From positions 8,597 through 72,596 of the forward strand of contig MHOO01000008.1 in NCBI GenBank assembly GCA_001820095.1: a stretch of 64,000 nucleotides of DNA, in the 5' to 3' direction. Position numbers and translations under genes: made by a program. Shown in pieces: positions 11,357-63,403 of the stretch; positions within the stretch are counted from its first letter, which is position 1; the number at the start of each line of letters is the position of its first letter. Under the pieces are notes generated by a model. The model was not told the DNA's origin and searched no databases. It saw only the letters and a list, made by a program, of their open reading frames with translations. This DNA is from Candidatus Staskawiczbacteria bacterium RIFCSPHIGHO2_01_FULL_39_25. GTDB taxonomy: Bacteria > Patescibacteriota > Minisyncoccia > Minisyncoccales > Staskawiczbacteraceae.

Positions 11357-11364
11357 AAAATTAA

Positions 11365-11402
11365 AGTCTTACAAAACCTACGGCCGTAGGTTTTGTAAGA
11401 CT
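11365..11402. repeat. Family-A palindromic element, copy 2
   Basis: AGTCTTACAAAACCTACGG/CCGTAGGTTTTGTAAGACT, a perfect 19+19 palindrome. Confidence 0.9.
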
Positions 11403-11403
11403 G

Positions 11404-47074: not shown

Positions 47075-48295
47075 ATGAAAATAAAAAATCTTTTATTAGT
47101 AACACTCTCACTTTTAATTGGTAGTTTAGTAAGCGGCGGCGTTGCTTTTGCAGTGCCTGGCTTCTTTGCTCAAGGTGGTAGCTCTTTTTTAGAAAACGCA
47201 TTTTTGGGCACCAACGACAATTTCCCATTAATTATTGAAACCAATAATATAGAAAGGGCGCGCTTTGATACTAATGGCAATCTTGGCATTGGCACAAGTT
47301 CTCCATCTTCACTGTTATCTTTAGGGTCTGCCTCAACAACTACCGGAAGTTTATCTTTAGCTAATTCATCAAGCGCAAGTTTATTAACTTTAATTTCTGG
47401 CAACAATAGTTCTCCCTGGACATTAACATTCCCAATTTCAGACGGCAATAGCGGAGAAGTTTTAAAAACAGATGGCTCTGGAAATACTTCATGGGGATCA
47501 GTAGCAGATAGTGAACTATCTCTTTCCGATATTACTACCAACAACGTTTCAACCTCAAAGCATGGTTTTGCCCCAAAAGCTCCCAATGATGCGACTAAAT
47601 TTTTTGATGGAACAGCTAATTACGATACGGTTAAAGATTCTGACCTTTCCCTTTCAGATATCACCACGAATGATGTATCAACTACCAAGCACGGATTTGC
47701 TCCTAAAGCTCCCAATAATACTACTAGATTTTTGAGAGGAGATGCTACATGGTCAGCATTGCCATCACCTCATACTACGGTATCAACCTATATTCCAAAA
47801 CCAGCTGGGCTAGAAGGTGTTGCTACAAATGCTCTTAATAGTAATACCACGATGCTTGTTGGTCAAATTTATATTCCCTTTAAAATTATCGCTAACAAAA
47901 TTTCTTTTAGAAACGAAGGTGCAGCCACCTCTGGGACAGCTGACATTACAATGTATTCAGAAGACGGACAAAATCAAATTTTTACAGTCACAACAGGAAC
48001 GATAAATGCGGAGTCCATCATTACTACTTCTTTATCATCAGAAACCACTATTAATCCAGGAGTTTACTACATAGCTATTAACCCCAATAGTACTACAGAT
48101 GTTCAACCTTGGCTTTGGACGGCAGGATCAGGTCCCTTTATATGGACAGGGAGTATCTTGTCTGATGTAGCATCTGAACCAGTTTTAGCAGGAACACTTA
48201 CAATTACTGCAGGAACTCCTCCATCAACAATTACACCAAATTCAATTACCGAATCAAGTGGCCCCGCAACATTAATATTTAGATTAGATAATTAA
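47075..48295 (+). CDS. Secreted tail-fibre-like protein (406 aa) with a 43-aa tandem repeat
   Basis: Signal peptide. ERARFDTNGNLGIGTSSP motif, as I recall from phage tail-fibre-type proteins. D-S-[ED]-LSLSDITTN-x-VST-x-KHGFAPKAPN occurs twice. Confidence 0.5.
   Translation: MKIKNLLLVTLSLLIGSLVSGGVAFAVPGFFAQGGSSFLENAFLGTNDNFPLIIETNNIERARFDTNGNLGIGTSSPSSLLSLGSASTTTGSLSLANSSSASLLTLISGNNSSPWTLTFPISDGNSGEVLKTDGSGNTSWGSVADSELSLSDITTNNVSTSKHGFAPKAPNDATKFFDGTANYDTVKDSDLSLSDITTNDVSTTKHGFAPKAPNNTTRFLRGDATWSALPSPHTTVSTYIPKPAGLEGVATNALNSNTTMLVGQIYIPFKIIANKISFRNEGAATSGTADITMYSEDGQNQIFTVTTGTINAESIITTSLSSETTINPGVYYIAINPNSTTDVQPWLWTAGSGPFIWTGSILSDVASEPVLAGTLTITAGTPPSTITPNSITESSGPATLIFRLDN
47507..47750 (+). 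repeat. 129-nt tandem duplication inside the 406-aa gene
   Basis: Repeat units start at 47507 and 47636. Confidence 0.75.
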
Positions 48296-48374: not shown

Positions 48375-51017
48375 TTATTTCTTATCTCGTATCGTTTCTA
48401 CGTACCTAGGCCAATAGTTTCCTGGGAATGTGCTGATAAACTCTTCTACCTGTTTTTCTAAATCAGGCTTCAATCGTATCGTGGCAAGGGCTTCTTGGTA
48501 AGCGCTTTCATATTCTTTTAGCTCGTAGTAAATGTTGGCTAGACCCCAATGATAATCCCAATTATTGTAATCATTGCGGAGCAGTTGCACATAAATATTT
48601 TTGACAATTAAAATTTCCTTCAGCGCTTTTTCTTCCTGACCAACTTGCCGGTAAATATAGGCTAACGATGAATGAATGGCTGGATTATTTGGGCTTAACC
48701 CAAGCAATGCTTGAATAAATGGTACGATTTCCGGGTTTTCAGGCTGGGCTTTAAACACTTTTAATGCTTCTTGGCTGGCGCTGGTGTAATCTCCGGCTTG
48801 CCGGTATAAAAAGGCAAGCGTAGCATGGTGGCTGGCTGCCGAAGCCGGATTGGTTGGTATATCAATTCTTTCATAGGCTTTTACGGCTTCCTGCCAATTT
48901 TTTTGGCTCATGTAGGCCACGGCCAGCTGTTTGTAGACGGGGTTTAAGTAGCCGTTTTCCCGTGATAATGCTATATTTTTGGCGCCTTCTTTCTGCTCTC
49001 CTAAAAATATTTGGGCAATTCCCAAATACCAGTAGCACTCTCCAAGGCTTGGGTCAATGGCAACACAATCTTTGCCTATTTTTTCCATCATGATATAGTC
49101 TTCAGCCACCATATAATTCTTTTCCATTTCCATAAGCATTTCTTGCCGTTTCGGACTTAGTTTTATTGCTTCATTCAAATAACCTCTGGCTTCTGCTAAG
49201 AGAGCATCTTTTCTTTCAGGGTTTTTCTCTCTCGCCGCTAATACATTGGCGAATGATCCCTTAAAGAGCCAGGTTCTTGAGTGTTTTGGCTGTACCTTGG
49301 AGGCAAATTCCAGCAAAGAAAGGGATTTTTTTGAATACTCTACCTCTTTTTCCGGTTCAGCGAATGTGCACTTTCTTATAACATCAGAATGTTTTAATGC
49401 CGCGTATGATATTAATATCCCTGATTTCTCCCAATTTGATCCATTAGTAACCTCTAACGCCTTTTTGCATTTTTTTGCATCCGCAAGGTTATCGGCAAGC
49501 ACAATTTTTTCATTGAGGTAGAGCGGCTTTACCCCCCAGAACCAAAAGAAGATGACAACCAATGCCAAAAAGGCGATTGACGCAGGTTTTATGAAGGGCA
49601 TTGCTTTTGGAAGGGGCGCAATTTCTAATGTTTCGCTGTCTAAAGATATTAAGTGCAAAGCGTATCCTATGAAGAAAAAAGAAATCAGGTAAGTTGAAAA
49701 ATAATCAAAATTAAAGGAAAGGACGACTAAGTATCCAATGAACATTGCCTGCAGTCCATGGGCTGTATGGGAATTTTTGCTGTTGTCGGGGCGATATTTT
49801 ACTCTTTGAAGCTGCCAGAGGAGAATAACCCAGAATGCCACATATGATAAAAGCGCAAAAATGCCCGAGTTTGCCCAAATTTCCAAAAAGATATTATGGG
49901 GCCTGTCCCACCACAATTTTTGAAGGCTTGGGGGAAGGGTAGGGTCAAAGTATTTTTCAAAGCCGATATAAAAATTTTCCGGCCCCCAGCCCAGCCAGGG
50001 TTTTTCTTTAATGGCCTGCCATGTGATTTTCCATGCTGAAAGCCTGGTTCCTGCCAGGTCTTCAGCTACCAAATCAAAGGAAAGCCTGTTATTAATAAAG
50101 TAAGAAAGCTGCTGGTTGTTTTCAATGAAGCCAGGGAGTTTTGGGGTGGTGTTTACGTATACTAATGCAATCAAAAATAGTAGTATGAAAAGCGCTGACA
50201 CTATCTTAAATACCTTTAATCTTTTTGGATTAATAAATGTTATAAATCTATCTTCAGTTTTTGCGAATTTTGCGGGATAAAATAAGAAGTAAAAGGCAAA
50301 TGCAATGAATATTCCAAGATAAGCGGCTCGGGACCCCGTAATAAGCGCCGTAAGGAGGAAAAAAAGCGCCAAAGCCCCGTAAAATATCCTTCTATTTTTA
50401 TCTTTTTGTTCAAGGAAAACGGTAAAGCAAGAAAAGACCATAAAAACCAGGTAAATGGCTAGCGCCGTGGAGTTGCCGAAAAATGATGGGGGGCCTCCGG
50501 CTTCCCATCCTAAAAATATATCCTTAAAAAGGCCGAGATATTGGACTATGGCAAATACGCCGGCCAATACTCCAACGATGAAGTTTGTTTTAATAAGCCT
50601 ATCCCATGTACTTCCTTTAAGGAAAATAGTAATGATGGCCGTAAAGATAAGGTAAAAAAGCATATTGAGCATGCCTCCTGCCCTTGACGGCGACCCAAAA
50701 ATGCTGAACCGGATGTCTTCTGAGGTTATGGTTGAAATAATTAAGACAACAAAAAAGCCAAAAAAAGCGATAATAGGCAAATAAAAATACCAGTTTTTTT
50801 TCGGCAACGAAAAAGAAATGTCTCTTTTATAGAAAAATCTAAAAAGAGTATAACAGGTTAAAACGGTGATAATACCCCTGAATAAAATTGTTCTCGTCCA
50901 ATCAGAGGGCTGGAAGTTTGGCAGGAGAAGCGTTATGGGTAAAAATAAGGCAATACAGACTCCCCAATAAATCCAAGAGGGCATTTTTTCTAGGTAGGAA
51001 GCATTATTGTTTTTCAT
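48375..51017 (-). CDS. O-antigen-ligase/Wzy_C-domain polytopic membrane protein fused to C-terminal TPR repeats (880 aa)
   Basis: About 12 TM helices with ITGSRAAYLG (Wzy_C-like). The C-terminal ~350 aa contain repeated TPR-like A..Y......A....Y..A units. Confidence 0.75.
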   Translation of the reverse strand: MKNNNASYLEKMPSWIYWGVCIALFLPITLLLPNFQPSDWTRTILFRGIITVLTCYTLFRFFYKRDISFSLPKKNWYFYLPIIAFFGFFVVLIISTITSEDIRFSIFGSPSRAGGMLNMLFYLIFTAIITIFLKGSTWDRLIKTNFIVGVLAGVFAIVQYLGLFKDIFLGWEAGGPPSFFGNSTALAIYLVFMVFSCFTVFLEQKDKNRRIFYGALALFFLLTALITGSRAAYLGIFIAFAFYFLFYPAKFAKTEDRFITFINPKRLKVFKIVSALFILLFLIALVYVNTTPKLPGFIENNQQLSYFINNRLSFDLVAEDLAGTRLSAWKITWQAIKEKPWLGWGPENFYIGFEKYFDPTLPPSLQKLWWDRPHNIFLEIWANSGIFALLSYVAFWVILLWQLQRVKYRPDNSKNSHTAHGLQAMFIGYLVVLSFNFDYFSTYLISFFFIGYALHLISLDSETLEIAPLPKAMPFIKPASIAFLALVVIFFWFWGVKPLYLNEKIVLADNLADAKKCKKALEVTNGSNWEKSGILISYAALKHSDVIRKCTFAEPEKEVEYSKKSLSLLEFASKVQPKHSRTWLFKGSFANVLAAREKNPERKDALLAEARGYLNEAIKLSPKRQEMLMEMEKNYMVAEDYIMMEKIGKDCVAIDPSLGECYWYLGIAQIFLGEQKEGAKNIALSRENGYLNPVYKQLAVAYMSQKNWQEAVKAYERIDIPTNPASAASHHATLAFLYRQAGDYTSASQEALKVFKAQPENPEIVPFIQALLGLSPNNPAIHSSLAYIYRQVGQEEKALKEILIVKNIYVQLLRNDYNNWDYHWGLANIYYELKEYESAYQEALATIRLKPDLEKQVEEFISTFPGNYWPRYVETIRDKK

Positions 51018-51083: not shown

Positions 51084-51524
51084 ATGTCAAAAAAAGTAGT
51101 TATTACATCTGGATATTTTAACCCAATCCATATCGGCCATATTAATTTAATAAAAGAAGCTAAGAAATTGGGCGATTTTTTAGTAGTGATTGTCAATAAT
51201 GATGAGCAGGTGAAAATCAAGAATTCCGTTAATTTTATGCCCCAGCAAGAAAGGATGGAAATAGTAAAGGCGCTAAAGTACGCCGACCACGTTTTTTTAT
51301 CGGTTGATAAGGATAAGAGCGTTGCCGAAAGCCTAAAGGCTGTGGCAAAATTATACCCGGGAGAATTATTTTTTGCGAAAGGAGGGGACAGGAACATAGA
51401 TAATATTCCCGACCAGGAAAAGAAGGTGTGTGAAGAATTTTCCATAAAAGTAATCAGCGGAGTGGGCGGAGATAAGATACAAAGCTCTTCTTGGCTTTTA
51501 AATAAGATAAAATCATCCTCATGA
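51084..51524 (+). CDS. Cytidylyl/adenylyl-transferase of the HIGH-motif family (TagD / RfaE-domain-II-like)
   Basis: SGYFNPIHIGHINL motif in a 146-aa protein. Confidence 0.7.
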   Translation: MSKKVVITSGYFNPIHIGHINLIKEAKKLGDFLVVIVNNDEQVKIKNSVNFMPQQERMEIVKALKYADHVFLSVDKDKSVAESLKAVAKLYPGELFFAKGGDRNIDNIPDQEKKVCEEFSIKVISGVGGDKIQSSSWLLNKIKSSS

Positions 51525-52273
51525 AAAAAAAGAAAGCTCTACAACACAGGGCGGGAATTTTAGGGCACGGAGAAGTTGGCCAGGCAATTGCCAAATTTTA
51601 TAGAAAGCCTTTGATTAAGGATTTGCAGCGGGATGACGGCTTGCAAGGCGTTGATATTTTGCATGTATGCATACCGTGGAGCGATAGCTTTATAAATACC
51701 GTAGAAGAGCAAATACAGCATATTCAGCCGAAATTAACCATTATCCATTCTACGGTGCCTCCCGGCACTACTAAAAAAATTGCGGACAAATTTTTGGGCA
51801 TGGCAGTTCATAGCCCTATACGAGGAGTGCATCCAAATTTATATGAAGGAGTAAAAACATTTGTTAAATATATTGGGGCCGATGATAAAAAAGCAGGCCT
51901 TCTGGCAAAAAAGCATTTGGAGAGTTTAGGTATTGCAACAAAACTTTTCCCTTCTTCGGCAACTACTGAAATAGGAAAACTTCTTGATACAACGTATTAT
52001 GGGCTTGCCATAGCTTGGCACGGCGAAATGAAAAAAATTACCGATGCCTTGGGAGTTGATTTTGACCACGCAGTAACTGATTTTAATAAAACTTATAATG
52101 AAGGGTATAAAAAATTAGGCAAGCACCATGTGGTAAGGCCCGTGCTTTCCGCCCCGAAAGGCCATATTGGCGGCCATTGCATTATTTCAAACACAAAATT
52201 ACTAAAGAAACATTTAGATAGCAAGGCTATTGATTTTATTTTAGATTATGAGCGCAAAGTACAGGAAAGTTAA
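51521..52273 (+). CDS. NAD(P)-binding protein, short nucleotide-sugar-dehydrogenase-like
   Basis: GILGHGEVGQAI Rossmann loop. The TEIGKLLDTTYYGLAIAW..GVDF central-domain-like segment and GGHCI give only a moderate resemblance. Confidence 0.4.
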   Translation: MKKKKALQHRAGILGHGEVGQAIAKFYRKPLIKDLQRDDGLQGVDILHVCIPWSDSFINTVEEQIQHIQPKLTIIHSTVPPGTTKKIADKFLGMAVHSPIRGVHPNLYEGVKTFVKYIGADDKKAGLLAKKHLESLGIATKLFPSSATTEIGKLLDTTYYGLAIAWHGEMKKITDALGVDFDHAVTDFNKTYNEGYKKLGKHHVVRPVLSAPKGHIGGHCIISNTKLLKKHLDSKAIDFILDYERKVQES

Positions 52274-52280
52274 AAATGTT

Positions 52281-52922
52281 ATGGCAAAGATTACCTCTAA
52301 AGATTACCATGATTACGTTATCAAAAATGGTAAGTTCATAGGTGAATTTGAGCAGATGTATCAAAACGTAAAAGACCCATGGAACCATGGCGCTGCCGAT
52401 ATTTCTTCTTATGATATGGCACTGTACTTAATGGATAAATATAATATTTGCAAAAAAGGCGGCGCCATATTTGACATTGGATGCGGAAAAGGAGCTTTTA
52501 CCCATAGGATAAAAAAAGCGTGCCCGAAAGCTAAAATCCTAGCGGTAGATATTTCTGAAACTGCAGTAAAAAAAGCAAAATCCCAGCATGGTAACAGCAG
52601 CATCGATTTTAGGGTAATGGATATACAAAAAGAATATAAAAGTATTGCCGGTAAATTTGACTTGATCGTAGTATCAAATGTCATGTGGTACATTCTCCCT
52701 GATTTTTCAAAAATAATGAACTACCTGAAGGGTAGTTTGAAAAATAATGGGTATGTATTGATACGGCAAACATTTTATAAAAAAGGAGAGCAAAAATATG
52801 GTAATAACATCATTTCATCGCCAGAAGATATGGTTTCTTTGCTGTCCTATAACCTTGTTGAGTTAATTGAATTAAATAGGACGACTGTCTATGAGGCAGT
52901 CGTTCTTTTGCAAAAAAATTAA
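52281..52922 (+). CDS. Class I SAM-dependent methyltransferase
   Basis: IFDIGCGKGAFT motif I. The start at 52281 lies after the upstream stop. Confidence 0.75.
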   Translation: MAKITSKDYHDYVIKNGKFIGEFEQMYQNVKDPWNHGAADISSYDMALYLMDKYNICKKGGAIFDIGCGKGAFTHRIKKACPKAKILAVDISETAVKKAKSQHGNSSIDFRVMDIQKEYKSIAGKFDLIVVSNVMWYILPDFSKIMNYLKGSLKNNGYVLIRQTFYKKGEQKYGNNIISSPEDMVSLLSYNLVELIELNRTTVYEAVVLLQKN

Positions 52923-52923
52923 T

Positions 52924-53808
52924 ATGAAGTGCACCCTTTGCGGCAGGGAAAAATTCAATATAGTAAAAAAGAGGATTAGGGATTCTCACGTACACAGCGT
53001 AGTAACCTGTAAAAAATGCGGCCTTGTACAATTATCACCCCGGCCTTCTTTAAAAAAAGAGCAAGAATTTTATGACAAGAATTTACAGTCAAAAAATATT
53101 CTCTCTCCCACCGATATAAAAACAATTACCTTAAATTCGCTGCATGATACCAACAGGCGCGCAGATTTTGTTGGCAAACATTGCAATAAAAAAAGCCATA
53201 TTTTAGACATAGGATCAGGCGATGGTTTGTTTTTAAAGGAAATGGAGGGCAGGGGATATAACATTACAGGACTGGAAGTATCAAAGGAAAGGCGGGAAAC
53301 TTCAAAAAAGGTTGCAAAAGCAAAAGTATTAGATATTAATCTTTTAAAAGACCAGCCGCCGGCAGATTTTAAAAAATTTGATGGTGTAACCTTAATTCAT
53401 GTTTTAGAGCATATTATTGACCCCGTATTATTTTTACAAAATATCGCAAAGAATTTTCTTAAAAAAGATGGCAGCATTATTATAGAGGTTCCAAATCTAG
53501 ATGATTTACTCGTTGTTGAAAATAAACAGTATGATGCATTTTATTGGCAAAGGGGGCATGTATTTTATTTCAATAAAAAAACTTTAACCCAAGTAGTCAA
53601 AAAAGGCGGGTTCTTAATAAAAAGCTTTGAATATGTCCAGCGGTATGGCTTAGAAAATTTTATGCATTGGCAGGTAAAAGGCAAGCCACAAATTGACAAG
53701 CCGACGTTTCAAATTGAAGGTGAATATAAATGGCTGGAAGATTACTATAAAAGTTACCTTTGCAAAATCGGCAAATCCGATACCATGATCATAGTGATAA
53801 AACCTTAA
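52924..53808 (+). CDS. Class I SAM-dependent methyltransferase with N-terminal zinc ribbon
   Basis: CTLCG..CKKCG ribbon, ILDIGSGDGLFL, and GSIIIEVPN. Confidence 0.75.
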   Translation: MKCTLCGREKFNIVKKRIRDSHVHSVVTCKKCGLVQLSPRPSLKKEQEFYDKNLQSKNILSPTDIKTITLNSLHDTNRRADFVGKHCNKKSHILDIGSGDGLFLKEMEGRGYNITGLEVSKERRETSKKVAKAKVLDINLLKDQPPADFKKFDGVTLIHVLEHIIDPVLFLQNIAKNFLKKDGSIIIEVPNLDDLLVVENKQYDAFYWQRGHVFYFNKKTLTQVVKKGGFLIKSFEYVQRYGLENFMHWQVKGKPQIDKPTFQIEGEYKWLEDYYKSYLCKIGKSDTMIIVIKP

Positions 53809-53911
53809 GGGTTAAGTAACTATAAAAGGCATAACTCTTTTTAAAAAACACCAATAACGGTGTTTTTACGGTATTGCTAAATAGTAAAAATATAGTAGTA
53901 TAATAGCAACT

Positions 53912-56173
53912 ATGCAAGAGCCTAATCCATACAAAATTCCTTGGTCAGGCAGGTCGGTAGAATATACTTCCGCAGAAATTGATGCGGTAGTAAATGCCAT
54001 GAAAACGGCCGACCCTTTGACGCAAGGGAAATACTTAAAGGAATTTGAAAGCAAATTTTCAGAGTATCTAGGCGTTAAAAATTCTTTTGCGGTATCTTCG
54101 GCTACCGCGGCTTTAGAATTGGCGGCTATTTTAACCAGGGTTGGCAAAGGCGATGAAGTGATTATTCCTGCCCATACCTTCTGCGCTACAGCCATTCCTT
54201 TTGCCAGAACGGGAGCCAAAGTTGTATGGGCTGATATAGATAGGGATACCAGAATCGTAACCGCTAAAACTTTGGAAAAATGCATCACGAAAAACACAAA
54301 GGTAATAGTAGTAGTGCACTTATACGGATTAGTGGCTAATATGCCAGAAATTATGGCATTGGCGCAAAAGTATAACATTTTAGTGGTTGAAGACTGCGCC
54401 CAAGCCATCGGAGCAGAATATCAAGGAAAAAAAGCCGGTGCTTATGGGGACTTTGCCTGTTTTAGTTTCCATTGCCAAAAAAGCATAAATACGTTAGGGG
54501 AAGGGGGCATGCTGGTGGTTAAGTCAGATGAGAAAGCAAAACTAGTCCCCGGGCTTCGCCATAATGGGGTAAAGCCGTACCCAGCTGGCAGGGACAGGTA
54601 TTGGGTGCCGGCCATGAGCAATGTTGATTTTGATATTGAAGGGTTTTTCCCCTACAACTTTTGCATTGGAGAGGTGCAGTGCGCCTTGGGCATAGAAATT
54701 TTAAAGACCATTGACGCCCAAAACCAAAAAAGAAAAGAACGGGCTAAAAAATTAATAGATGCTTTGAAAGAGTACCCGGAATTATCTTTTCAGAAGGCAG
54801 AAGACGGGCAGGGGAAAATGCATGTATATCATTTGCTGTCAGCGCAGTATGACGGGAAAAAATTCGGCAAAACAAGAAATGATCTTATTGAATTGCTTGC
54901 CGTAAAATACCAGATAAAAACGGTAGTGCAATATTATCCGTTATATAGATATCCGCTTTTCCAAAAAACCGGATTTGGAACTGCCGATTGCCCGAATACC
55001 GATGAATTTTTTGATAATATGATCTCTTTCCCGTTTCATATTTGGATGCCAGATGCCGATTTTGAATATCTCATTGACTCAACCAAAAAATCCCTTGAAG
55101 AGCTAAGAGCCCAGAAAATAATGAAAATGGTGCCAAAAATTGTCTTTGGCGAAGGAAAATTTGATGCGTTGCATCCCATAGCTGAAGAAATATTCAGCCT
55201 AGGGCAGGGATATATAGTGTACCTTATTGATTCAGTGCACCAAAAAACAGGGCTAAAAAATAGGTTAGTTCCAAGAAACCAGGATATGGTTATTGATATT
55301 GATGTTTCTTTGCACGAGCCGAAAACGGAACAGGTAGACCAGATAAAAGACCAGATTTTAGCTAAAAAAAATGCCTTGCCTCACCTTGTTGTTGGCATTG
55401 GCGGGGGATCAGTCATGGATATTGCCAAAGGAGTATCTATTATGCTGACTAACAATAGCTCCTCGGCTGATTACCAGGGCTGGGACCTTCCCAAAAATAA
55501 GGCCATTTTTAAAATGGCGGTTCCCACGCTTTCTGGTACTGGTTCTGAAGCTACCAGGACGGCGGTGCTAACCAGCTTAACCAAGAAACAAGGCATTAAC
55601 AGCGACCAAAGTATTTTTGATGCTGTAGTGATGGACCCTGAATTAATCAAAACGGTTGACCTCGAGCAGGAATTTTTTACCGGCATGGATTGCTTTATCC
55701 ATTGCGTGGAATCACTGCGGGGCACGTTTATCAATGAATTTGCAAGAAGCTTTGCCAAAACTTCAAAACAGGATATTGAAGACTTTTTCCTGAAAGAGAA
55801 AAATTATGGCAAGCTGATGATGGCTTCTTACTTTGGTGGGTCTTCCATTGCAAGCTCGGAAGTGGGCGTCTGCCATGCCTTGAGCTACGGATTAAGCCTG
55901 GTATTAGGATTCAGGCACGGCATAGCCAACTGCATTGTATTTAATCAACTGGACGAATTTTATGATACCGATGTTGTCAAAATGCGCGAGATGATGAAAA
56001 AAAATAACATTGAATTGCCAAAAAATGTAACTAAAGGATTAACTCCAGAAGACATGGAAAAAATGGTTCACATGGCCTTTAAGATGGAAAAACCTTTGAT
56101 CAATGCTTTGGGAAGCAATTGGAGGAATATATTAACCAAAGAAAAAGTGATAGAATTGTATAAGAAGATGTAA
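53912..56173 (+). CDS. Fusion protein: DegT/DnrJ/EryC1-type PLP aminotransferase (N, ~390 aa) + iron-containing alcohol dehydrogenase family (C, ~350 aa)
   Basis: N-terminal half: SSATAALE, DCAQAIG, FSFHCQKSI (PLP Lys). C-terminal half: GIGGGSVMDIAKG, PTLSGTGSEATR, and His-rich metal-site segments FIHCVESL and CHALSYG. Confidence 0.8.
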   Translation: MQEPNPYKIPWSGRSVEYTSAEIDAVVNAMKTADPLTQGKYLKEFESKFSEYLGVKNSFAVSSATAALELAAILTRVGKGDEVIIPAHTFCATAIPFARTGAKVVWADIDRDTRIVTAKTLEKCITKNTKVIVVVHLYGLVANMPEIMALAQKYNILVVEDCAQAIGAEYQGKKAGAYGDFACFSFHCQKSINTLGEGGMLVVKSDEKAKLVPGLRHNGVKPYPAGRDRYWVPAMSNVDFDIEGFFPYNFCIGEVQCALGIEILKTIDAQNQKRKERAKKLIDALKEYPELSFQKAEDGQGKMHVYHLLSAQYDGKKFGKTRNDLIELLAVKYQIKTVVQYYPLYRYPLFQKTGFGTADCPNTDEFFDNMISFPFHIWMPDADFEYLIDSTKKSLEELRAQKIMKMVPKIVFGEGKFDALHPIAEEIFSLGQGYIVYLIDSVHQKTGLKNRLVPRNQDMVIDIDVSLHEPKTEQVDQIKDQILAKKNALPHLVVGIGGGSVMDIAKGVSIMLTNNSSSADYQGWDLPKNKAIFKMAVPTLSGTGSEATRTAVLTSLTKKQGINSDQSIFDAVVMDPELIKTVDLEQEFFTGMDCFIHCVESLRGTFINEFARSFAKTSKQDIEDFFLKEKNYGKLMMASYFGGSSIASSEVGVCHALSYGLSLVLGFRHGIANCIVFNQLDEFYDTDVVKMREMMKKNNIELPKNVTKGLTPEDMEKMVHMAFKMEKPLINALGSNWRNILTKEKVIELYKKM

Positions 56174-56182
56174 TATTTTGGT

Positions 56183-56818
56183 ATGATAAAAAGCAAAAAA
56201 ATATTAGCGGTGATCCCAGCCAGAGGAGGCAGCAAAACAATTCCCAGAAAAAATATCAAATTAATTCATGGCAAGCCGCTAGTGGTGTGGAGTATTTTAG
56301 CAGCAAAGAATTCAAAATATCTAGATAAGATTATTGTTTCCACAGATGACAAGGAAATCGCAAAGATTGCCATAAAGGCAGGAGCCGAAGTGTTGGATAG
56401 GCCTAAAAAATATGCTACTGACAAGGCAACTACGATTTCTGTTTTGCAGCATGCAATAAAAGAAGTTCCAGGGTATGATGCTATTGTGCTATTGCAGCCA
56501 ACTTCTCCCTTAAGGACAGGAAAGTTGATTGATAAAGCCGTAGAACGGTTTATCAAGAGCAAGGCAGATACCTTAGCTACGGGCTACATTTGCAAAGAAT
56601 ACGAATGGGGGACTACCAATAATATCCCCCGCCAAAAATTGAAAGGGTGGTTCTATGACGATGGTAATATTTATGTCCAAAGCGCAGAACATCTCAAAAA
56701 AGGCCAATGGACTGGAAAAAAATTAGAAAAGATGGTCATAGAGAAGCATTATAATTTTGAAATTGATGACGAAAATGATTTTTATATCGTAGAACAATTA
56801 ATGAAAAGGTACCTATGA
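56183..56818 (+). CDS. CMP-ulosonic acid synthetase (acylneuraminate cytidylyltransferase / NeuA-KdsB family)
   Basis: IPARGGSKTIPRKN and LLQPTSPLR motifs. Confidence 0.85.
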   Translation: MIKSKKILAVIPARGGSKTIPRKNIKLIHGKPLVVWSILAAKNSKYLDKIIVSTDDKEIAKIAIKAGAEVLDRPKKYATDKATTISVLQHAIKEVPGYDAIVLLQPTSPLRTGKLIDKAVERFIKSKADTLATGYICKEYEWGTTNNIPRQKLKGWFYDDGNIYVQSAEHLKKGQWTGKKLEKMVIEKHYNFEIDDENDFYIVEQLMKRYL

Positions 56819-57381
56819 TACCAGGAAACATACAAGATAAATTAAAAGAAGTTAAGGCGGTAGTTTTTGATGGCGACGGAGTCTTCTTCACCGGCAGAGT
56901 TTTCGTACATCCTGAAACCGGTGAAATGCTAAAAGAAAGAAGCCATGTGGATGGCCAGGGAATTTCCCTGTTAAGGGCCATTGGCATCAAAGTTGCGTTT
57001 GTAACGGGAGAAAAAACTGGATTTCTGGAAGCGATATGCAAAAAATTAAATTCCTTGCCTTCTGTTCAAAACGGGGGATGGCCTGCCATTGCGCTGTTTA
57101 CTGGCCAGCAGGGAGATAATAAGGTAAAGGCAATAGATAGCTGGCTTTCACAAAATAATATTAGCTGGAGCCAAACCGTGGCCATGGGTGATGATATTAC
57201 TGACTATCAGCTATTGCAAAAAGCCGGCATTGTAGCAGCTCCGGCCCAAGCAGAAGAAGTTATCAAGAATATTGCAGACTATGTAACTTTGCGCAAAGGG
57301 GGAGACGGGGCAATACGGGATCTTTGCAATACAATTTTAGAGGCAAGGAATATAGATTTAATTTCTTTAAAAAAGCGGTAA
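56815..57381 (+). CDS. HAD-IIIA KdsC-family ulosonate-phosphate phosphatase
   Basis: VVFDGDGVFF (DxD), VTGEKT, MGDDITD and GGDGAIRDL motifs. Confidence 0.8.
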   Translation: MIPGNIQDKLKEVKAVVFDGDGVFFTGRVFVHPETGEMLKERSHVDGQGISLLRAIGIKVAFVTGEKTGFLEAICKKLNSLPSVQNGGWPAIALFTGQQGDNKVKAIDSWLSQNNISWSQTVAMGDDITDYQLLQKAGIVAAPAQAEEVIKNIADYVTLRKGGDGAIRDLCNTILEARNIDLISLKKR

Positions 57382-57390
57382 TTTGAAACC

Positions 57391-58242
57391 ATGATAGATT
57401 TTAATAAACTGGAAAAACCTTATTTGATTGCTGAAGTGGGAATTAACCATAATGGCGATATGCAAATCGCCAAGCGTTTGATTTCAGCGGCGTTTGGCAG
57501 CCAGTGGGATTGCGTGAAATTCCAGAAAAGGGTTCCTGAAATAGCCACTCCGGAAGCCCAAAAAAACATTATGCGCGATACGCCATGGGGCAGGATGACC
57601 TATTTGGAATATAAGAAAAAATTAGAATTTGGCAAACCAGAATACGACTACATTGACAAGTATTGCAAGGAAAAACCTATTGATTGGACGGCCTCGGTGT
57701 GGGATGTGCCAAGCCTGGAGTTTATCATGCAGTATGATGTGCCGTTCTTAAAAATCCCTTCAGCTAAAATTACTGAGAAAGAACTGATTGCTGCAGTAGC
57801 GAAAACAGGCAAACCAATTATCCTTTCAACAGGCATGAGCACCTTGGAAGAAATTGACGAAGCCGTAAAAATATTAAGAGATTATAACGCCAACTTTTTG
57901 CTGCTTCACTGTAATTCCGCCTATCCTTCTAAAAAAGAGGACTTGAATATAAGGGCTATGCATACGTTAAAAGAACGATATGGGTGCCCGGTAGGATATA
58001 GCGGCCATGAATATGACTTGGAGCCTTCAGTATACGCAGCTGTTTTGGGGGCTAAAGTAATTGAGCGCCACATTACCATTGACCATAACCTTTGGGGCAC
58101 TGACCAGGCGGCCAGTTTAGAGGTAAGCGCCATGGATATGTTAAGAAAAAGGCTTCAAGACGTGAATATCGTATTAGGGGACGGGGTGAAAAAAATTGCA
58201 GAATCGGAAAAAGCAATCAGGGAAAAATTACGAGGATACTAA
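57391..58242 (+). CDS. NeuB-family (sialic/KDN/legionaminic-type) ulosonic acid synthase, short form without SAF domain
   Basis: LIAEVGINHNGD, VKFQKR, KIPSA and YSGHE motifs in a 283-aa protein. Confidence 0.85.
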   Translation: MIDFNKLEKPYLIAEVGINHNGDMQIAKRLISAAFGSQWDCVKFQKRVPEIATPEAQKNIMRDTPWGRMTYLEYKKKLEFGKPEYDYIDKYCKEKPIDWTASVWDVPSLEFIMQYDVPFLKIPSAKITEKELIAAVAKTGKPIILSTGMSTLEEIDEAVKILRDYNANFLLLHCNSAYPSKKEDLNIRAMHTLKERYGCPVGYSGHEYDLEPSVYAAVLGAKVIERHITIDHNLWGTDQAASLEVSAMDMLRKRLQDVNIVLGDGVKKIAESEKAIREKLRGY

Positions 58243-58247: not shown

Positions 58248-59705
58248 TTATAGAACTTGTTCAGCCTTAAAAAGATTCTTAAAAAATAATAATTCTTTTT
58301 TTCCAAAGCCCTTAAATAAGATAATGAGAATACCGTAAATAATGACTCCAGCTGCAATGGCAATAAGGGTGGACATCAATCCTTCTGGGTTAAGCCATGC
58401 AAGCGCCATAGCCATTATTGCAGAGGCCAATATGCTTTTGAGGATAAACATTACATCAATTTCAAAGGGCAGGTATTTTAAAGAAAAATAGCTGCATACG
58501 ATAATGACAAATAAATATGAGGCAAGGGTATTAATTGCGGCAGCTATAATTCCAAAATGAGGGATTAAAGCAAGATTTAAGGCCAAATTTAAGCAGGTGG
58601 CGCCAATCCATATTTTCCCTAAGATTAAGGTCTTTTTTACCAGCACTAACCCTTGCAGCATTACTCCGTAGAGCCCGTACAATATCATGCTTAAGGCCAT
58701 AAAGGGAATCAGCATGTGCCCCTTTTCTACAATTTCCTGGGTAGAGAAAATGGTCAGCAACTGCTTTGATAATATTGATAGCCCGAAAAAAGCAGGGATC
58801 GTTACCATTAAAAGATATTTAAGAGAATATTTTAAATATCTTTTTACTTGGCCTAGGTTGTTTTCGTCATACAGCTTTGAGAGCACCGGAGGAAGAAGGA
58901 AAGAAAGGGGAGTTTCAAAAAATGCGATGACTCCGGCAATGGTGTAAGCCGGGACATAGTATCCTACAAACAGGGCCCCAAAAAAATAACCGATCAAAAA
59001 CCGGTCATTAAAGTGCACTAGCCAATTGGATATGTTTTCTGGTATGGTGGGCAGGCCAAACCGCAAATAATTTTTTGTTTTAGAAAACACAGGAATTGTT
59101 ATGCCAATTTTTCTGATGATAATACATGCGGTAATCAGAAAATTAATAACCCGTATAGCCAAGAGTCCCGCCATTGCTCCGAAAAGCCCTAACCCCAGCC
59201 AAATAAAAAATACGATTAATGCTATTTCTCCTAACCCTTGAAAGATGATGAAGAAAGAATACTGCTTAATTTTCCTAAATGCGCGCAATGTATTAAGGCA
59301 AACCTGGTTTAAGCATTCAAAAATGATGATAATGGCTAACATTTGAATAAGAATGGCTTGGCATTGCAGGAAATTGGCAATTGGCGCTGCAAGAAAAAAT
59401 AGAAGAAAAGAAATAACCAGGCTGAAGGCAAAAACCAAAATTGCTACCGAATAAATGCCATCCTGTATTTCCTTTTGGTCTTTCTCTCCTGATATGAATC
59501 TTACTAAGGCATAGGGAAGCCCTAATACAATAATGGGGCTTACCAATGAAACAATGACTACTAATTGCGCCCAAATGCCGTATTCTCGTGCCCCTAGGAT
59601 TTTAGTTATAATAGGCAGCAAAATAATGGCCCGTAAGGCCATTATTGAGTTTGTACCTGCCACTAAGGCAACTTCTTTGGTGAATTTCTTATATGACATA
59701 GGCAA
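58248..59705 (-). CDS. Wzx-type (MOP superfamily) oligosaccharide flippase
   Basis: 485 aa with about 12-14 TM helices and a typical polysaccharide-biosynthesis-protein layout. Confidence 0.75.
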   Translation of the reverse strand: MPMSYKKFTKEVALVAGTNSIMALRAIILLPIITKILGAREYGIWAQLVVIVSLVSPIIVLGLPYALVRFISGEKDQKEIQDGIYSVAILVFAFSLVISFLLFFLAAPIANFLQCQAILIQMLAIIIIFECLNQVCLNTLRAFRKIKQYSFFIIFQGLGEIALIVFFIWLGLGLFGAMAGLLAIRVINFLITACIIIRKIGITIPVFSKTKNYLRFGLPTIPENISNWLVHFNDRFLIGYFFGALFVGYYVPAYTIAGVIAFFETPLSFLLPPVLSKLYDENNLGQVKRYLKYSLKYLLMVTIPAFFGLSILSKQLLTIFSTQEIVEKGHMLIPFMALSMILYGLYGVMLQGLVLVKKTLILGKIWIGATCLNLALNLALIPHFGIIAAAINTLASYLFVIIVCSYFSLKYLPFEIDVMFILKSILASAIMAMALAWLNPEGLMSTLIAIAAGVIIYGILIILFKGFGKKELLFFKNLFKAEQVL

Positions 59706-59760: not shown

Positions 59761-61191
59761 ATGCAAAAAAGGAAAGAGGTAAGAGTAAATTTCAAAGAAG
59801 GTTTCAAAAAATTGGCGGATTTAGAGGTGCAGTATGATCTTTTTTCCATATTCTATGAAGGGATTCCCTTATGGTTATACGCTCGCGATAGAGCCCTTAA
59901 TATTATCAGCGGGATTACTTCCTACGAAGGCCAATCAATTTCTTCCCACGCCATACGTCCCGTAAATCTTGTAAAAAGGGTTTTTTACTGCATCCTCAAT
60001 TTTTATAAGATATTCAATAACGATATCATTATTTTCACCAATGAAAGGCACCTTGAAAAAGATTTGCAGACGGGAGAATATTATAACCCCTTTGCAGAAT
60101 TGGCAGTAAGGCAAAACCCTAATGCCAAGAAATTTTTGATATTTGAGTTTCCCATACCCATGACGGTAAAATATCAAAAAGTAAACTATCAGAATTACAT
60201 GCTCTTGGATGTATTCCTTTTTTTCAGGCAAATTTTTTCTCCGCTCTCATTATTCTACTATAGGAAGATAAAGAAAGTATTTGAACCAAAATTCAAAGCG
60301 TCTGGCTTATTTACAGAATCAGAAATTAAAGAACTTTTAAGGCGTTGTTATTATTCTGCGTATAGCATGGTATGCTATGGTATTTTTTTAAAATTCATCA
60401 AGGCAACAAATCCTCATGCTAAGTTAATTTACAGCTGTATGGGGGGGTATGACAAGTTTCCCGGGGTCATAGAAATACAACCAGCCCTAATCATTGATAA
60501 CCAGTCGGTATATATCTATCCTGAGACAAAATATACGCAAAACTATTTAAAAACTAAGAAAATGATTGTTTTTTCAGAGCATGCCAAAGATCTTTTAGCT
60601 AAAAATGGCTATACGCAGGAAAATATTTCCGTACAGGGCAATTCGAAAATTAAATTTTATTTTATTAAAAATATAAATGATACTATACTAAAAAAGGTAG
60701 AAAAAGTTGATAATAAAATTGTCATTATAGGAAACTGGGGCGGAAGTTTTTTAAAAATTATTAAGAATCTTGTATTGGATATAGAAAAAAATAATGAGCT
60801 ATTTAAAAATTGGGACATATCATTGGTATTGCACCCGGCCGAGGATAATACATATAAAAAACTGCATTTAACCAAGGTTAAGGTATTTGAAAATCACCAG
60901 GTGTCCCTATGGGGGATGCTATCAGAGGCGGTCGCCACCATTAACATTGCGTCTACGGTTCTTGAAGAGTCAACCTATTTTGGATGTTACAATATTATAT
61001 TGAAAGATATAAAATTCAGCGATCAAACGGATTTTGTTAATGCCTTATGCGGATCGTATCCTTATAAAGCAATAGTTGATCCTGAAAAATTTATCCATTG
61101 GTTTGAAGAAAACCAAAGCAATATCAAAAACCATGCTATTCAGAAAAATAAAATCATTAAAGAAAATTACGAATATTTCTTAAAAAATTAA
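59761..61191 (+). CDS. Hypothetical protein, possible GT-B glycosyltransferase (candidate ulosonic-acid transferase)
   Basis: The C-terminal pattern LVLHPAED..(40 aa)..AVATINIASTVLEESTYFG recalls the x-HP ... V-x-TinS-x-x-lEA pattern I associate with capsule Kdo-transferase-type enzymes. The evidence is weak. Confidence 0.3.
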   Translation: MQKRKEVRVNFKEGFKKLADLEVQYDLFSIFYEGIPLWLYARDRALNIISGITSYEGQSISSHAIRPVNLVKRVFYCILNFYKIFNNDIIIFTNERHLEKDLQTGEYYNPFAELAVRQNPNAKKFLIFEFPIPMTVKYQKVNYQNYMLLDVFLFFRQIFSPLSLFYYRKIKKVFEPKFKASGLFTESEIKELLRRCYYSAYSMVCYGIFLKFIKATNPHAKLIYSCMGGYDKFPGVIEIQPALIIDNQSVYIYPETKYTQNYLKTKKMIVFSEHAKDLLAKNGYTQENISVQGNSKIKFYFIKNINDTILKKVEKVDNKIVIIGNWGGSFLKIIKNLVLDIEKNNELFKNWDISLVLHPAEDNTYKKLHLTKVKVFENHQVSLWGMLSEAVATINIASTVLEESTYFGCYNIILKDIKFSDQTDFVNALCGSYPYKAIVDPEKFIHWFEENQSNIKNHAIQKNKIIKENYEYFLKN

Positions 61192-61201
61192 ATAAAAAAC
61201 C

Positions 61202-61921
61202 ATGGCAGCAACAGAACAAGAAATCAAACAGTGGTATAACGAAAGGCATATAAGGACTAAAGAGCATTCATGGCGCCTGCCAGAGGCTTATTCGCTTATT
61301 TTGGATTACTTTAAAGAATTTGGCATCAAGCCAGGCCAAAAAATATTGGATATTGGCTATGGGTCGGGATATTTTTTAAAGGCGGCCGATGAAGCGGGGC
61401 TTGATACGTATGGCATTGATATTTCAGAAGAAGGCATGAAAATTGCCCAAAAAAGTTCACCAAATTCCAAGCTATATGTGGGCAAGGGGGAAGATTTGCC
61501 ATTTGAAGATAATTTTTTTGACCATGTAGCCTGCATTGGGGTGCTGGAGCATTTTATGGATATAGAAAAGGGAATTAAAGAAATGAAAAGAGTTATCAAG
61601 CCTGGGGGAACACTTTTAATACTGGTGCCAAACATTAATTTTATCTATTGGAAATTCCAGAAAAGCAAGGGAACTGAACAGAAGGATATCAGCGAAGCAT
61701 TAATGTCACTGGAGCAGTGGAGGGATAAATTCATTAAAGAAGGGCTGGAAGTCATAAAAATAGACAAAGATGATTGGTTTTCTAAGGAACCTATTGTATT
61801 TACGCCTTTTTCTTTGCCGGTACTGTTAAGGGGCATCAAGAGAATGATTTACAAGGTGATTTGGGTTTTTGTCCCTCTAAGATATACCTACCAATTTATT
61901 TATATCTTGAAGAAAAATTAA
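61202..61921 (+). CDS. Class I SAM-dependent methyltransferase
   Basis: ILDIGYGSGYF and PGGTLLILVPN motifs. Confidence 0.75.
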   Translation: MAATEQEIKQWYNERHIRTKEHSWRLPEAYSLILDYFKEFGIKPGQKILDIGYGSGYFLKAADEAGLDTYGIDISEEGMKIAQKSSPNSKLYVGKGEDLPFEDNFFDHVACIGVLEHFMDIEKGIKEMKRVIKPGGTLLILVPNINFIYWKFQKSKGTEQKDISEALMSLEQWRDKFIKEGLEVIKIDKDDWFSKEPIVFTPFSLPVLLRGIKRMIYKVIWVFVPLRYTYQFIYILKKN

Positions 61922-61939
61922 TCGGTTGTTTCAGTAAAA

Positions 61940-63403
61940 ATGGAAAAATACGAAAAAATTTTAGTAATTATCATTTCTGCAATCCTTGCATTGGGAGTAG
62001 TATCTTTTTTAGATAAAACTTTAATGGCTGGCATGCTGTTCTCTCTGCTGCTGGGAACTGCGACACTATTATTTTTATCTAAACTAGGAATTGAAGATAA
62101 AAAAATAACCACATTTTTTGTGGTTGTTTTTATTATTCATACCGCCGTGGTGGTGGCTATGCACTATTCTAATTTCCAGCCATTTGCAAATGGAGCAGGA
62201 GATTTTGTTGAATACCATAAAAATGCCATAGAGATCTATACAAGGCTCCAGCACGGAAATTTCTCAGTTATGGGTTTAGAGCGGGCAAGCCATTACTATC
62301 CTGTTTTAATAGGATATATTTATACTTTTACAGTGCCTAATATGCTCATGGGGCAATTATTAAACGCCTGGTTAATGTCGCTGACTGCTTTGGTATCTTA
62401 CTTTATCGTTACTGCAATTAAAGGATCCAAAAAGGGGGCATTGCTGGTTGCAACCATGGTAGCTTTCTATCCTAGCCTGCTATTTTTTGGGGGATTAATG
62501 CTCAAAGATGCCCTTATTGTCTTTTTAAGCTTACTAGGAATATTAATTACCATTCAATTAATTCAAAAATTCCAATGGGGATTATTTGCGCTTTTATATT
62601 TAATACTTGGGTTTACCATCCATTTTAGGTTTTACATAGGTTTTGCCGTTTTGCTTACCTTTATTATTTCCTGGTTATTATTCTCAAATATATATTTTAA
62701 AAAGCGCGCTATGTATTTCTTAGTGATGGTAGCGCTTTTTGGTTTTTTGCCCCAGCTATTTATGGTTGATGATGCCGGATATTGGGGGGCTAAATTATTT
62801 AAACAATATCTAAATCAGAAAACTATTTCTTATTATCGGGAATCAGCTTATGTAGCCGAACCGCAGTATGCAAAAAACGTTACAACTCCGGTTGTTACTA
62901 CTTCTGTTGCTAACCAAAAAGAGCCTGTTATAATTCCTGCCGCTCTTGAAGAAGAAGATACTGCCGGCTCTACGTTTGCGGTGAAAACAGAATTTAATAA
63001 TTTTTTTAAGTTTATTGGGAACTATATAGTATCTTTTATTTATACTATTTTTGGGCCGTTTGTATGGCAAATAAAGTATAAGCGCCAACTTCTTTCTTTG
63101 ATAGAAGTAATACCTTGGTACTTTTTGCTGTTTTTTATCGTAAAAGGAGCCATAAAAGAATTTGGCCGTTATTACAAAAATAATTATAAAATATATGCTC
63201 CGCTTTTGATATTTACCGTATTAGTGCTTAGCAGTATCGCCCTTTTTTTCAATAATTTTGGGATTATTACCCGAATTCGCATCCCAGCCATTATATGTCT
63301 GCTATGCTTCTTGCCTTTTAGCTTAAAAGAGGATAGTGTAATATATCAATATTTTGAGAAAATATATTCTAAAATATCCTTGAAATGGAATCAAAAAAGG
63401 TAG
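61940..63403 (+). CDS. Polytopic membrane protein (GT-C-like glycosyltransferase or polymerase candidate)
   Basis: About 11 TM helices with a central soluble loop. No diagnostic motif seen. Confidence 0.45.
   Translation: MEKYEKILVIIISAILALGVVSFLDKTLMAGMLFSLLLGTATLLFLSKLGIEDKKITTFFVVVFIIHTAVVVAMHYSNFQPFANGAGDFVEYHKNAIEIYTRLQHGNFSVMGLERASHYYPVLIGYIYTFTVPNMLMGQLLNAWLMSLTALVSYFIVTAIKGSKKGALLVATMVAFYPSLLFFGGLMLKDALIVFLSLLGILITIQLIQKFQWGLFALLYLILGFTIHFRFYIGFAVLLTFIISWLLFSNIYFKKRAMYFLVMVALFGFLPQLFMVDDAGYWGAKLFKQYLNQKTISYYRESAYVAEPQYAKNVTTPVVTTSVANQKEPVIIPAALEEEDTAGSTFAVKTEFNNFFKFIGNYIVSFIYTIFGPFVWQIKYKRQLLSLIEVIPWYFLLFFIVKGAIKEFGRYYKNNYKIYAPLLIFTVLVLSSIALFFNNFGIITRIRIPAIICLLCFLPFSLKEDSVIYQYFEKIYSKISLKWNQKR

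Follow-up and report, generated by a model that had tools for sequence, protein, structure and literature searches.

What reaction would be carried out by a protein in which a sugar aminotransferase is joined end to end to an iron-containing alcohol dehydrogenase (Fe-ADH)? The question is raised by a single gene of Candidatus Staskawiczbacteria bacterium RIFCSPHIGHO2_01_FULL_39_25, an ultra-small groundwater bacterium of the Candidate Phyla Radiation (CPR, or Patescibacteriota), located in a 64,000-nucleotide stretch of contig MHOO01000008.1 (GenBank assembly GCA_001820095.1, positions 8,597 to 72,596 of the forward strand), which is referred to here as the window. The gene (53912-56173, + strand) encodes a fusion of a DegT-family aminotransferase and a KdnB-like Fe-ADH of 753 amino acids, with an ATG start, one terminal stop codon and no interruption in between.

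An earlier reading of this DNA, made from its letters and translated open reading frames (ORFs) and referred to as the sequence-only reading, likened the two halves to the KdnA/KdnB pair of Shewanella. According to the summary of Gattis et al. 2013 given in PMC4402001, KdnB and KdnA turn free 3-deoxy-manno-octulosonic acid (Kdo) into its 8-amino derivative (Kdo8N) ahead of activation with cytidine monophosphate (CMP). The literature treats Kdo8N as a hallmark of Shewanella or as found exclusively there (PMC4402001, PMC6357163). The comparisons described here favour a related but different role, in which the fusion is probably a bifunctional enzyme that would convert the terminal CH2OH of a free 3-deoxy-2-ulosonic acid into CH2NH2, as part of a putative 9-amino nonulosonate pathway.

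Domain architecture and catalytic residues

Pfam confirms that two enzymes share the one ORF. The aminotransferase domain occupies residues 1-400 (53912-55111, + strand), of which residues 21-390 match DegT_DnrJ_EryC1 (PF01041) with 313.6 bits (E=2.6e-93), and the KdnB-like domain occupies residues 402-753 (55115-56170, + strand), with Fe-ADH matched at residues 409-576 (E=2.3e-26) and ADH_Fe_C at residues 590-692. All three motifs quoted in the sequence-only reading are present: FSFHCQKSI at residues 184-192, which holds the pyridoxal phosphate (PLP) lysine K190 (54479-54481); GGGSVMDIAKG at residues 497-507, with GGGS itself at residues 497-500 (55400-55411); and PTLSGTGSEATR at residues 538-549.

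The PF01041 match, together with K190 and D161 (54392-54394, within VVEDCAQA), identifies the N-terminal half as a DegT/fold-type-I PLP aminotransferase. The predicted metal ligands of the Fe-ADH domain are D593 (55688-55690), H597 (55700-55702), H655 (55874-55876) and H669 (55916-55918). Judged by these residues and the GGGS motif, the catalytic machinery of both domains is intact.

In the AlphaFold2 model of the fusion protein (mean predicted local distance difference test score, pLDDT, 87.8) both halves are confident, the aminotransferase mostly above 90. About 8 residues separate the last helix of the aminotransferase (381-400) from the first strand of the Fe-ADH domain (409-412). A 180-residue antisense frame that overlaps the 5' end of the gene (53866-54408, - strand) is most likely a chance ORF.

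The C-terminal half and the KdnB family

The C-terminal half aligns end to end with KdnB of Shewanella oneidensis (5k8c; 346 bits, E=2e-102, 47% identity) and scores 355 bits against the S. denitrificans homologue 3rf7, whereas the next solved Fe-ADH family reaches at most 73 bits. KdnB is also the top fold match of the whole model in Foldseek (target template modelling score, TM-score, 0.94; root mean square deviation 1.7 Å; 47% identity). The resemblance to KdnB therefore goes beyond a generic Fe-ADH relationship, as the sequence-only reading had supposed.

In a bootstrapped neighbour-joining tree the KdnB family is monophyletic against an Fe-ADH outgroup (100%) and falls into three clades. 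Clade A holds bona fide KdnB and Bacteroidota forms (100%); clade B, which contains the window protein (93%), is sister to clade A (74%); and clade C (100%), which includes proteins from loci L087, L088 and L103, is basal and found in NeuB contexts. On this evidence the C-terminal half is a KdnB-family enzyme specifically, of a sister subclade to bona fide KdnB; it lies in clade B, outside clade A, and is not a same-subclade orthologue of the Shewanella enzyme. GGGS 497-500 and the four ligands D593, H597, H655 and H669 are kept in 74 of 74 sequences (61 of type 1 and 13 of type 2, the two kinds of gene context described below). Only 9 positions distinguish the type-1 from the type-2 enzymes, and these are uninterpretable without a ligand complex.

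The N-terminal half and the DegT aminotransferases

The other half fares differently, and the proposed match to the Shewanella pair stands for KdnB-family membership, as placed by the tree, but not for KdnA. Against Shewanella KdnA the N-terminal half scores 120-128 bits, compared with 480-640 bits for true KdnA orthologues. Its best sequence match in the PDB is 7b0d, an Archaeoglobus sugar transaminase (186 bits), and KdnA (5k8b, 133 bits) ranks only 17th, behind 7b0d, perosamine synthases, BtrR-type enzymes and ArnB; KdnA is likewise absent among the top 50 fold matches of the model. The best NCBIfam model is PseC, with 263 bits against a cut-off of 423.5, and LegC reaches 167 against 420. 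The N-terminal half is thus, by these scores, not a KdnA orthologue but a member of a separate DegT lineage that recurs beside KdnB-like genes in NeuB clusters.

Authenticity, origin and rarity of the fusion

The sequence-only reading had itself raised the possibility that the junction is a frameshift artefact. In the nearest unfused relatives the aminotransferase and Fe-ADH genes are merely 1-20 nucleotides apart, so a small indel error could join them, and one database entry (P0001; 673 residues, 99% identical to the window protein) is evidently aberrant, with a gap of 81 residues across the junction that is probably itself a protein-level assembly or gene-model artefact. An error of assembly, frameshift or gene calling is nevertheless extremely improbable as an explanation of the fusion. 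The identical 753-residue protein has been deposited from two Candidatus Staskawiczbacteria metagenome-assembled genomes (MAGs) as a 'hypothetical protein' (OGZ64138.1 and OGZ73955.1; UniRef100_A0A1G2HQH7), and an exact-sequence look-up found it on 8 contigs from independent sources. A 76% identical orthologue (P0002) is known from at least 5 contigs; its locus (L001) is syntenic with the window, and it is fused in frame in the same way but with a different junction sequence. Passing from the unfused to the fused state requires, in addition, the loss of a stop codon and a net 4-nucleotide change, which is beyond a single-base error. The frameshift artefact was rejected on the strength of the two MAGs, the fused orthologue and the junction comparison.

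In the nearest relatives, L004 and L107 (which encodes P0121), the cluster is the same but the two enzymes have a gene each. The stand-alone aminotransferase of L004 (397 residues) is 76% identical to the N-terminal half, and its stand-alone Fe-ADH (349 residues) is 74% identical to the C-terminal half. The L004 junction reads ...LRK-TAG-A-ATG-CAG-AAA-ATA-ATG..., such that the Fe-ADH can open 1 nucleotide past the stop codon, in the +1 frame, as MQKIMKMVPR; its database gene call begins at the third ATG, 20 nucleotides past the aminotransferase stop. The fused junctions read ...LRAQKIMKMVPK... in the window (residues 398-409, 55103-55138, + strand) and ...LRNKPKIMKMIPR... in L001. Relative to L004 the stop, spacer and start are all gone, with a net 4-nucleotide change and no added linker, and the fusion is therefore attributed to loss of these three elements between adjacent aminotransferase and kdnB-like genes. 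In the bootstrapped neighbour-joining tree the two fused proteins pair as sisters (95%) inside a group of unfused relatives (96%), which indicates that this would have happened once, and recently.

The fusion is also rare. Among 5.8 billion clustered proteins, both domains occur together only in the window protein's own cluster and in P0002. An exhaustive phmmer scan found no other DegT::Fe-ADH protein among the best 150 of 1.84 billion 50%-identity representatives, its matches of about 770 residues in two stretches being DegT::DegT or DegT::GFO/IDH/MocA proteins, and none of 17 related metagenome loci carries the fusion. Within this coverage, the survey that the sequence-only reading called for finds the fusion in two protein clusters, and it is the unfused module that is widespread.

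The surrounding biosynthetic cluster

Directly downstream, as the sequence-only reading had described, lie contiguous genes for a CMP-transferase, a phosphatase and a NeuB-like synthase (56183-58242, + strand). The gaps from the fusion gene onwards are 9, -4 (a 4-nucleotide overlap) and 9 nucleotides, and because of this spacing the four genes probably form one operon.

The first of the three encodes a NeuA-type CMP-ulosonate cytidylyltransferase of 211 residues (56183-56818, + strand; Pfam CTP_transf_3), which scores 114 bits against the CMP-N-acetylneuraminic acid (CMP-Neu5Ac) synthetase 6ifd versus 37 bits against KdsB in the PDB, and 135 bits against PseF (cut-off 206) versus at most 67 bits against KdsB in NCBIfam. 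It is followed by a 188-residue phosphatase (56815-57381, + strand) of the haloacid dehalogenase (HAD) superfamily, of the C0, KdsC/KDN-9-phosphate-phosphatase type (KDN, 2-keto-3-deoxynonulosonic acid), which matches KdsC (93 bits, cut-off 208), YrbI (89) and the KDN-9-phosphate phosphatase model (85, cut-off 180) in NCBIfam, and KdsC-type enzymes (80 bits) and BT1713 (3e81, 57 bits) in the PDB. The third gene encodes a short NeuB-family ulosonate synthase of 283 residues without a SAF domain (57391-58242, + strand; Pfam NeuB 245.7 bits), which scores 253 bits against NeuB_NnaB (cut-off 400) and 190 against PseI (cut-off 340), and whose best PDB match is 6ncs, a short NeuB of 290 residues. 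Every NCBIfam equivalog score for the three genes is under its cut-off. KdsA, KdsB and KdsD are absent from the gene cluster, as are a 4,6-dehydratase, an N-acetyltransferase and a nucleoside diphosphate (NDP)-sugar hydrolase.

Upstream of the fusion are two S-adenosylmethionine (SAM)-dependent methyltransferase genes. The first product is NodS-like (52248-52922, + strand, 224 residues; Pfam NodS 49.6 bits, Methyltransf_31); homologues are kept in L001 and L004 (269-279 bits), weaker ones occur in L005 and L089, and in L004 and L107 the gene lies directly downstream of the KdnB-like gene. NodS is an N-methyltransferase, and by analogy the NodS-like protein may be a candidate N-methylase of the new amine. 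The second methyltransferase (52891-53808, + strand, 305 residues; Pfam Methyltransf_23 78.9 bits) is kept in L004 (412 bits).

Further upstream, at 51084-52273 (+ strand), a cytidylyltransferase-like gene (146 residues) and a 250-residue ORF (51521-52273) that weakly resembles NDP-sugar dehydrogenases in their central domain are both kept in L001 and L004. An 880-residue Wzy_C (O-antigen ligase/polymerase-like) protein with tetratricopeptide (TPR) repeats (48375-51017, - strand) is likewise syntenic in L001 and L004. Downstream of the synthase gene, a Wzx-type flippase (58248-59705, - strand; Pfam Polysacc_synt_3 and Polysacc_synt) is syntenic in L001, L004 and L107. The region 59761-63403 (+ strand) holds an ORF of 476 residues (59761-61191) without a Pfam match, a methyltransferase (239 residues) and a PMT-like GT-C glycosyltransferase (487 residues), all syntenic in L001 and L004. 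An ORF of 406 residues (47075-48295) is conserved in the cluster and also has no Pfam match.

Gene context across phyla

Species-representative genomes were scanned with a KdnB alignment, which gave at least 80 loci, and all ORFs of these loci were scored by reciprocal phmmer against the two halves of the window protein and against Shewanella KdnA and KdnB. Two principal arrangements emerged. Type 1 comprises about 60 loci among the matches listed, from Shewanella, many Desulfobacterota, Sulfurivirga, Cloacimonadota and Chitinophaga. In these, the gene directly upstream of a bona fide kdnB orthologue (430-600 bits to Shewanella KdnB) encodes a true orthologue of KdnA (480-640 bits to the Shewanella protein, 100-130 bits to the window N-terminal half), and no NeuB gene lies close by. 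The window, L001, L004, L005 and L009 make up type 2. Here the aminotransferase scores 446-716 bits to the window N-terminal half and 94-140 bits to KdnA, the KdnB-like protein 398-606 bits to the window C-terminal half and 350-397 bits to Shewanella KdnB, and the company is NeuB and a CMP-transferase, usually with a HAD phosphatase too. The order aminotransferase then KdnB is common to the fusion, to the unfused L004 and to the type-1 loci.

The window-type aminotransferase is found beside a KdnB-like or other Fe-ADH, NeuB and a CMP-transferase in L004, L005, L009, L087, L088, L089, L093, L095 and L103. Such loci come from unrelated lineages and vary in gene order, and even the more distant window-type aminotransferases (52-58% identity) keep the same gene company. 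The order in L087 is Fe-ADH, glycosyltransferase family 2 (GT2), aminotransferase, NeuB and CMP-transferase, and in L088 Fe-ADH, a GT2::aminotransferase fusion and NeuB; L089, L093, L095 and L103 contain this gene set too, differently ordered. Some of the type-2 loci (L005, L009, L087) also hold either a second DegT gene or one for a PseB-like dehydratase.

Individual components of the module can be exchanged. In L086 (Chloroflexi) an aldo-keto reductase replaces the Fe-ADH, in the presence of a short NeuB and a CMP-transferase::HAD phosphatase fusion (9026-10249). In another Staskawiczbacteria genome (L106) the KdnB-like enzyme, HAD phosphatase, NeuB (282 residues) and CMP-transferase are kept (9001-11498), and a class III aminotransferase (PF00202, 6522-7880) stands in place of DegT as a non-orthologous replacement. 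Interchangeable aminotransferases (KdnA-type DegT, window-type DegT and class III) around a constant KdnB-like enzyme would fit a step that is defined by its aldehyde substrate and not by a nucleotide sugar.

In L005 the aminotransferase is fused to the CMP-transferase (10001-11884; P0004, P0005). This fusion and that of CMP-transferase to HAD phosphatase join neighbouring pathway steps, and the former fits the order oxidase, aminotransferase, CMP activation. The logic of oxidation followed by transamination, taken by the sequence-only reading from Shewanella, is thus reinforced by gene context across phyla.

Other arrangements were also observed. Adjacent kdnA-kdnB pairs with Shewanella-type orthologues (430-640 bits) occupy L010-L083 (e.g. 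L013, L018, L022, L028, L032, L037, L060, L083) and occur in roughly 50 non-Shewanella species genomes among the matches listed (Desulfobacterota, Sulfurivirga, Cloacimonadota and Chitinophaga). Flavobacteriia show a third arrangement without an aminotransferase (L084 8502-11607, also L075 and L085), in which the neighbours of a KdnB-clade gene encode a HAD hydrolase, a PlsC-type acyltransferase and a full-length cytidylyltransferase resembling KdsB. Clade B KdnB-like genes of Desulfobacterota (L006, L007, L008) have no DegT or NeuB gene within 10 kb; in L007 a class I/II aminotransferase and an aldehyde dehydrogenase lie on the opposite strand. The L086 contig, which is seen in many samples, places the aminotransferase between a dihydrodipicolinate synthase (DHDPS)/NanA-like lyase and the aldo-keto reductase (3846-6004) and has no Fe-ADH; a sulfotransferase and a PMT-like gene lie near its short NeuB. 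The GT2::aminotransferase fusion of L088 (8001-9836) is represented by P0016-P0026, and L009 carries a fusion of NeuB to a xylose-isomerase-like TIM barrel (5423-7687).

Proposed pathway and alternative explanations

In the proposed pathway the short NeuB would condense a hexose-6-phosphate with phosphoenolpyruvate (PEP) to a nonulosonate-9-phosphate, from which the KdsC-type HAD phosphatase would free the 9-OH. By removing the terminal phosphate, the phosphatase would thus expose the hydroxyl that a KdnB-type enzyme needs. The C-terminal domain, as a metal- and NAD-binding Fe-ADH, would oxidise this terminal primary alcohol to the aldehyde (9-oxo), and the PLP-dependent N-terminal domain would transaminate the aldehyde to a 9-amino-9-deoxy nonulosonic acid. 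This action of the N-terminal half on the aldehyde end of the oxidised acid is inferred from the fusion and the recurrent context. The NeuA-type enzyme would then make the CMP-sugar from the 9-amino acid; the Wzx, Wzy_C and GT-C proteins would export the sugar and build it into a glycan or glycoprotein on the CPR cell surface; and the NodS-like and other methyltransferases may modify the product, possibly by N-methylation. With both domains in one chain, transamination would help to drive an unfavourable oxidation, and less of the reactive aldehyde would escape.

Characterised members of the NeuB family all make 9-carbon acids, and the host group, Candidatus Staskawiczbacteria, is reported to lack lipopolysaccharide (LPS). 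Because the synthase is of the NeuB family, the CMP-transferase NeuA-like and the host lineage without LPS, the likeliest product would be a 9-amino-9-deoxy nonulosonic acid rather than Kdo8N. The synthases of C9 acids (NeuB family) and of Kdo-8-phosphate (C8) are different families, and routes that combine NeuB with a phosphatase start from a 6-phosphosugar and pass through a 9-phosphate intermediate, hence a free 9-OH (PMC6200933). A KdsC-type phosphatase therefore points to a 6-phosphosugar start and a terminal phosphate, which excludes 9-deoxy acids of the pseudaminic (Pse) and legionaminic (Leg) type.

The fusion could instead convert Kdo to Kdo8N, in line with the substrate suggested by the sequence-only reading; arabinose-5-phosphate would then be turned into Kdo by the NeuB-like synthase and the KdsC-like phosphatase. 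This route would accord with the 47% identity to KdnB, with the very small number of type-specific positions and with the highest scores of the phosphatase, which are to KdsC models and structures. It is nevertheless unlikely, given a cluster without KdsA, KdsB or KdsD, a synthase from a family of 9-carbon enzymes, a CMP-transferase with 114 bits to NeuA and 37 bits to KdsB, a C-terminal half outside the bona fide KdnB clade and a CPR host reported to lack LPS; Kdo is probably not the substrate. A different objection is that the halves act non-consecutively, the N-terminal half as a PseC/LegC/perosamine-synthase-type enzyme on an NDP-4-keto-6-deoxy sugar and the Fe-ADH elsewhere, so that the fusion would serve co-expression. 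PseC is indeed the best NCBIfam model of the N-terminal half and LegC also matches, its nearest solved structures are nucleotide-sugar aminotransferases, and L005, L009 and L087 contain the PseB-like dehydratase or second DegT gene mentioned above. The PseC and LegC scores are, however, far under their cut-offs, the window cluster lacks the 4,6-dehydratase, N-acetyltransferase and NDP-sugar hydrolase, and the terminal phosphate implied by the KdsC-type phosphatase is impossible for 9-deoxy Pse/Leg acids. The class III aminotransferase that replaces DegT in L106 belongs to a family not known to use nucleotide sugars, and the aminotransferase::CMP-transferase fusion implies that the aminotransferase product is a free acid which is then CMP-activated. 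Non-consecutive action is judged quite unlikely on these grounds.

Consecutive oxidation and transamination of a nonulosonic acid is thus preferred, and several observations weigh against it. The closest characterised relatives of the N-terminal half (the PseC model, perosamine synthase and ArnB) are nucleotide-sugar aminotransferases, and with just 9 type-specific positions in the KdnB-like enzymes, sequence alone proves no change of substrate. The phosphatase scores slightly higher to KdsC than to KDN-9-phosphate phosphatase, so that an 8-carbon substrate is possible; an enzyme supplying hexose-6-phosphate is not evident in the window cluster; and a natural 9-amino nonulosonic acid was not found in the searchable literature. 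In the AlphaFold2 model the mutual orientation of the two domains is undefined (predicted TM-score, pTM, 0.64), which does not support a defined inter-domain channel, although channelling of the aldehyde between the fused domains, as the sequence-only reading envisaged, is plausible.

Relation to known systems and significance

The C-terminal domain shares with S. oneidensis KdnB the group III Fe-ADH fold, the GGGS motif and the D/H/H/H metal site, follows an aminotransferase directly as KdnB does, and differs from it in its sister clade, its fusion, its CPR host and its NeuB/NeuA cluster as opposed to an LPS-core/Kdo context. The N-terminal domain is, like the S. oneidensis 8-amino-3,8-dideoxy-manno-octulosonate transaminase KdnA, a DegT/fold-type-I enzyme encoded upstream of the oxidase with the same inferred role, but it is non-orthologous and nearer to the Archaeoglobus/oil-field 'sugar transaminases' (7b0d, 7b0m), perosamine synthase and ArnB. 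With the KDN/Neu5Ac-9-phosphate route (B. thetaiotaomicron BT1713/BT1714, Prymnesium and vertebrates) the cluster has in common a NeuB-family synthase, a KdsC-family HAD phosphatase and a CMP-sialate-type synthetase; the window would insert the oxidase/aminotransferase step between phosphatase and CMP activation. DegT::GFO/IDH/MocA fusions (P0361, P0265) similarly combine, in one polypeptide, a carbonyl-making oxidoreductase with the DegT aminotransferase that uses the carbonyl. GFO/IDH/MocA oxidoreductases act at ring positions of nucleotide sugars, whereas the oxidoreductase of the window is an Fe-ADH predicted to act on a terminal alcohol.

The chemistry itself is known; novelty lies in the fusion of the two domains, in an aminotransferase that is not orthologous to KdnA, in the NeuB context and in the CPR host. 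In the searchable literature no paper was found that connects nonulosonic acid clusters or CPR bacteria with Fe-ADH/KdnB-type enzymes, nor a description of the unfused KdnB-like/aminotransferase/NeuB module. Tentatively, the module might make undescribed 9-amino-9-deoxy, possibly N-methylated, KDN- or Neu-type acids on the surfaces of CPR, scattered Desulfobacterota, Chloroflexi and other bacteria, with terminal amination of nonulosonates perhaps the ancestral role of the KdnB family and Kdo8N a later offshoot. Such an ancestral role is possible because lineages in NeuB contexts occupy both the basal clade C and the window's clade B.

The fusion itself is a lineage-specific curiosity, yet it would serve as a 'Rosetta stone' linking both enzymes of a putative, widespread sugar-acid pathway. 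Nonulosonic acids (sialic, legionaminic and pseudaminic acids and KDN) shape microbial surface recognition, and each new backbone has opened new glycobiology; the locus predicts one with a terminal amine. It would extend the KdnA/KdnB paradigm from Shewanella to many phyla and to LPS-free bacteria, and it points to surface-glycan chemistry in CPR/Patescibacteria, where the biology of host attachment is poorly understood. 9-Amino sialic acids are currently made chemically, as probes, and one recombinant protein with both predicted activities would be convenient for assay or for their chemo-enzymatic synthesis.

The wider window

Elsewhere the window holds ordinary chromosomal genes (LeuRS, SHMT, RelA/SpoT, TopA, Mfd, HisRS, FtsA, ComEC and ClpB; about 38% G+C). 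A single tRNA is the only Rfam match in the whole window, and none lies near the locus. Two very large ORFs precede the glycan cluster on its upstream side: a 1713-residue ORF with three lamin-tail domains and a beta-helix (35147-40288) and a 1154-residue ORF with only a weak peptidoglycan-binding domain (43453-46917), both of which may be surface proteins and thus candidate carriers of the glycan.

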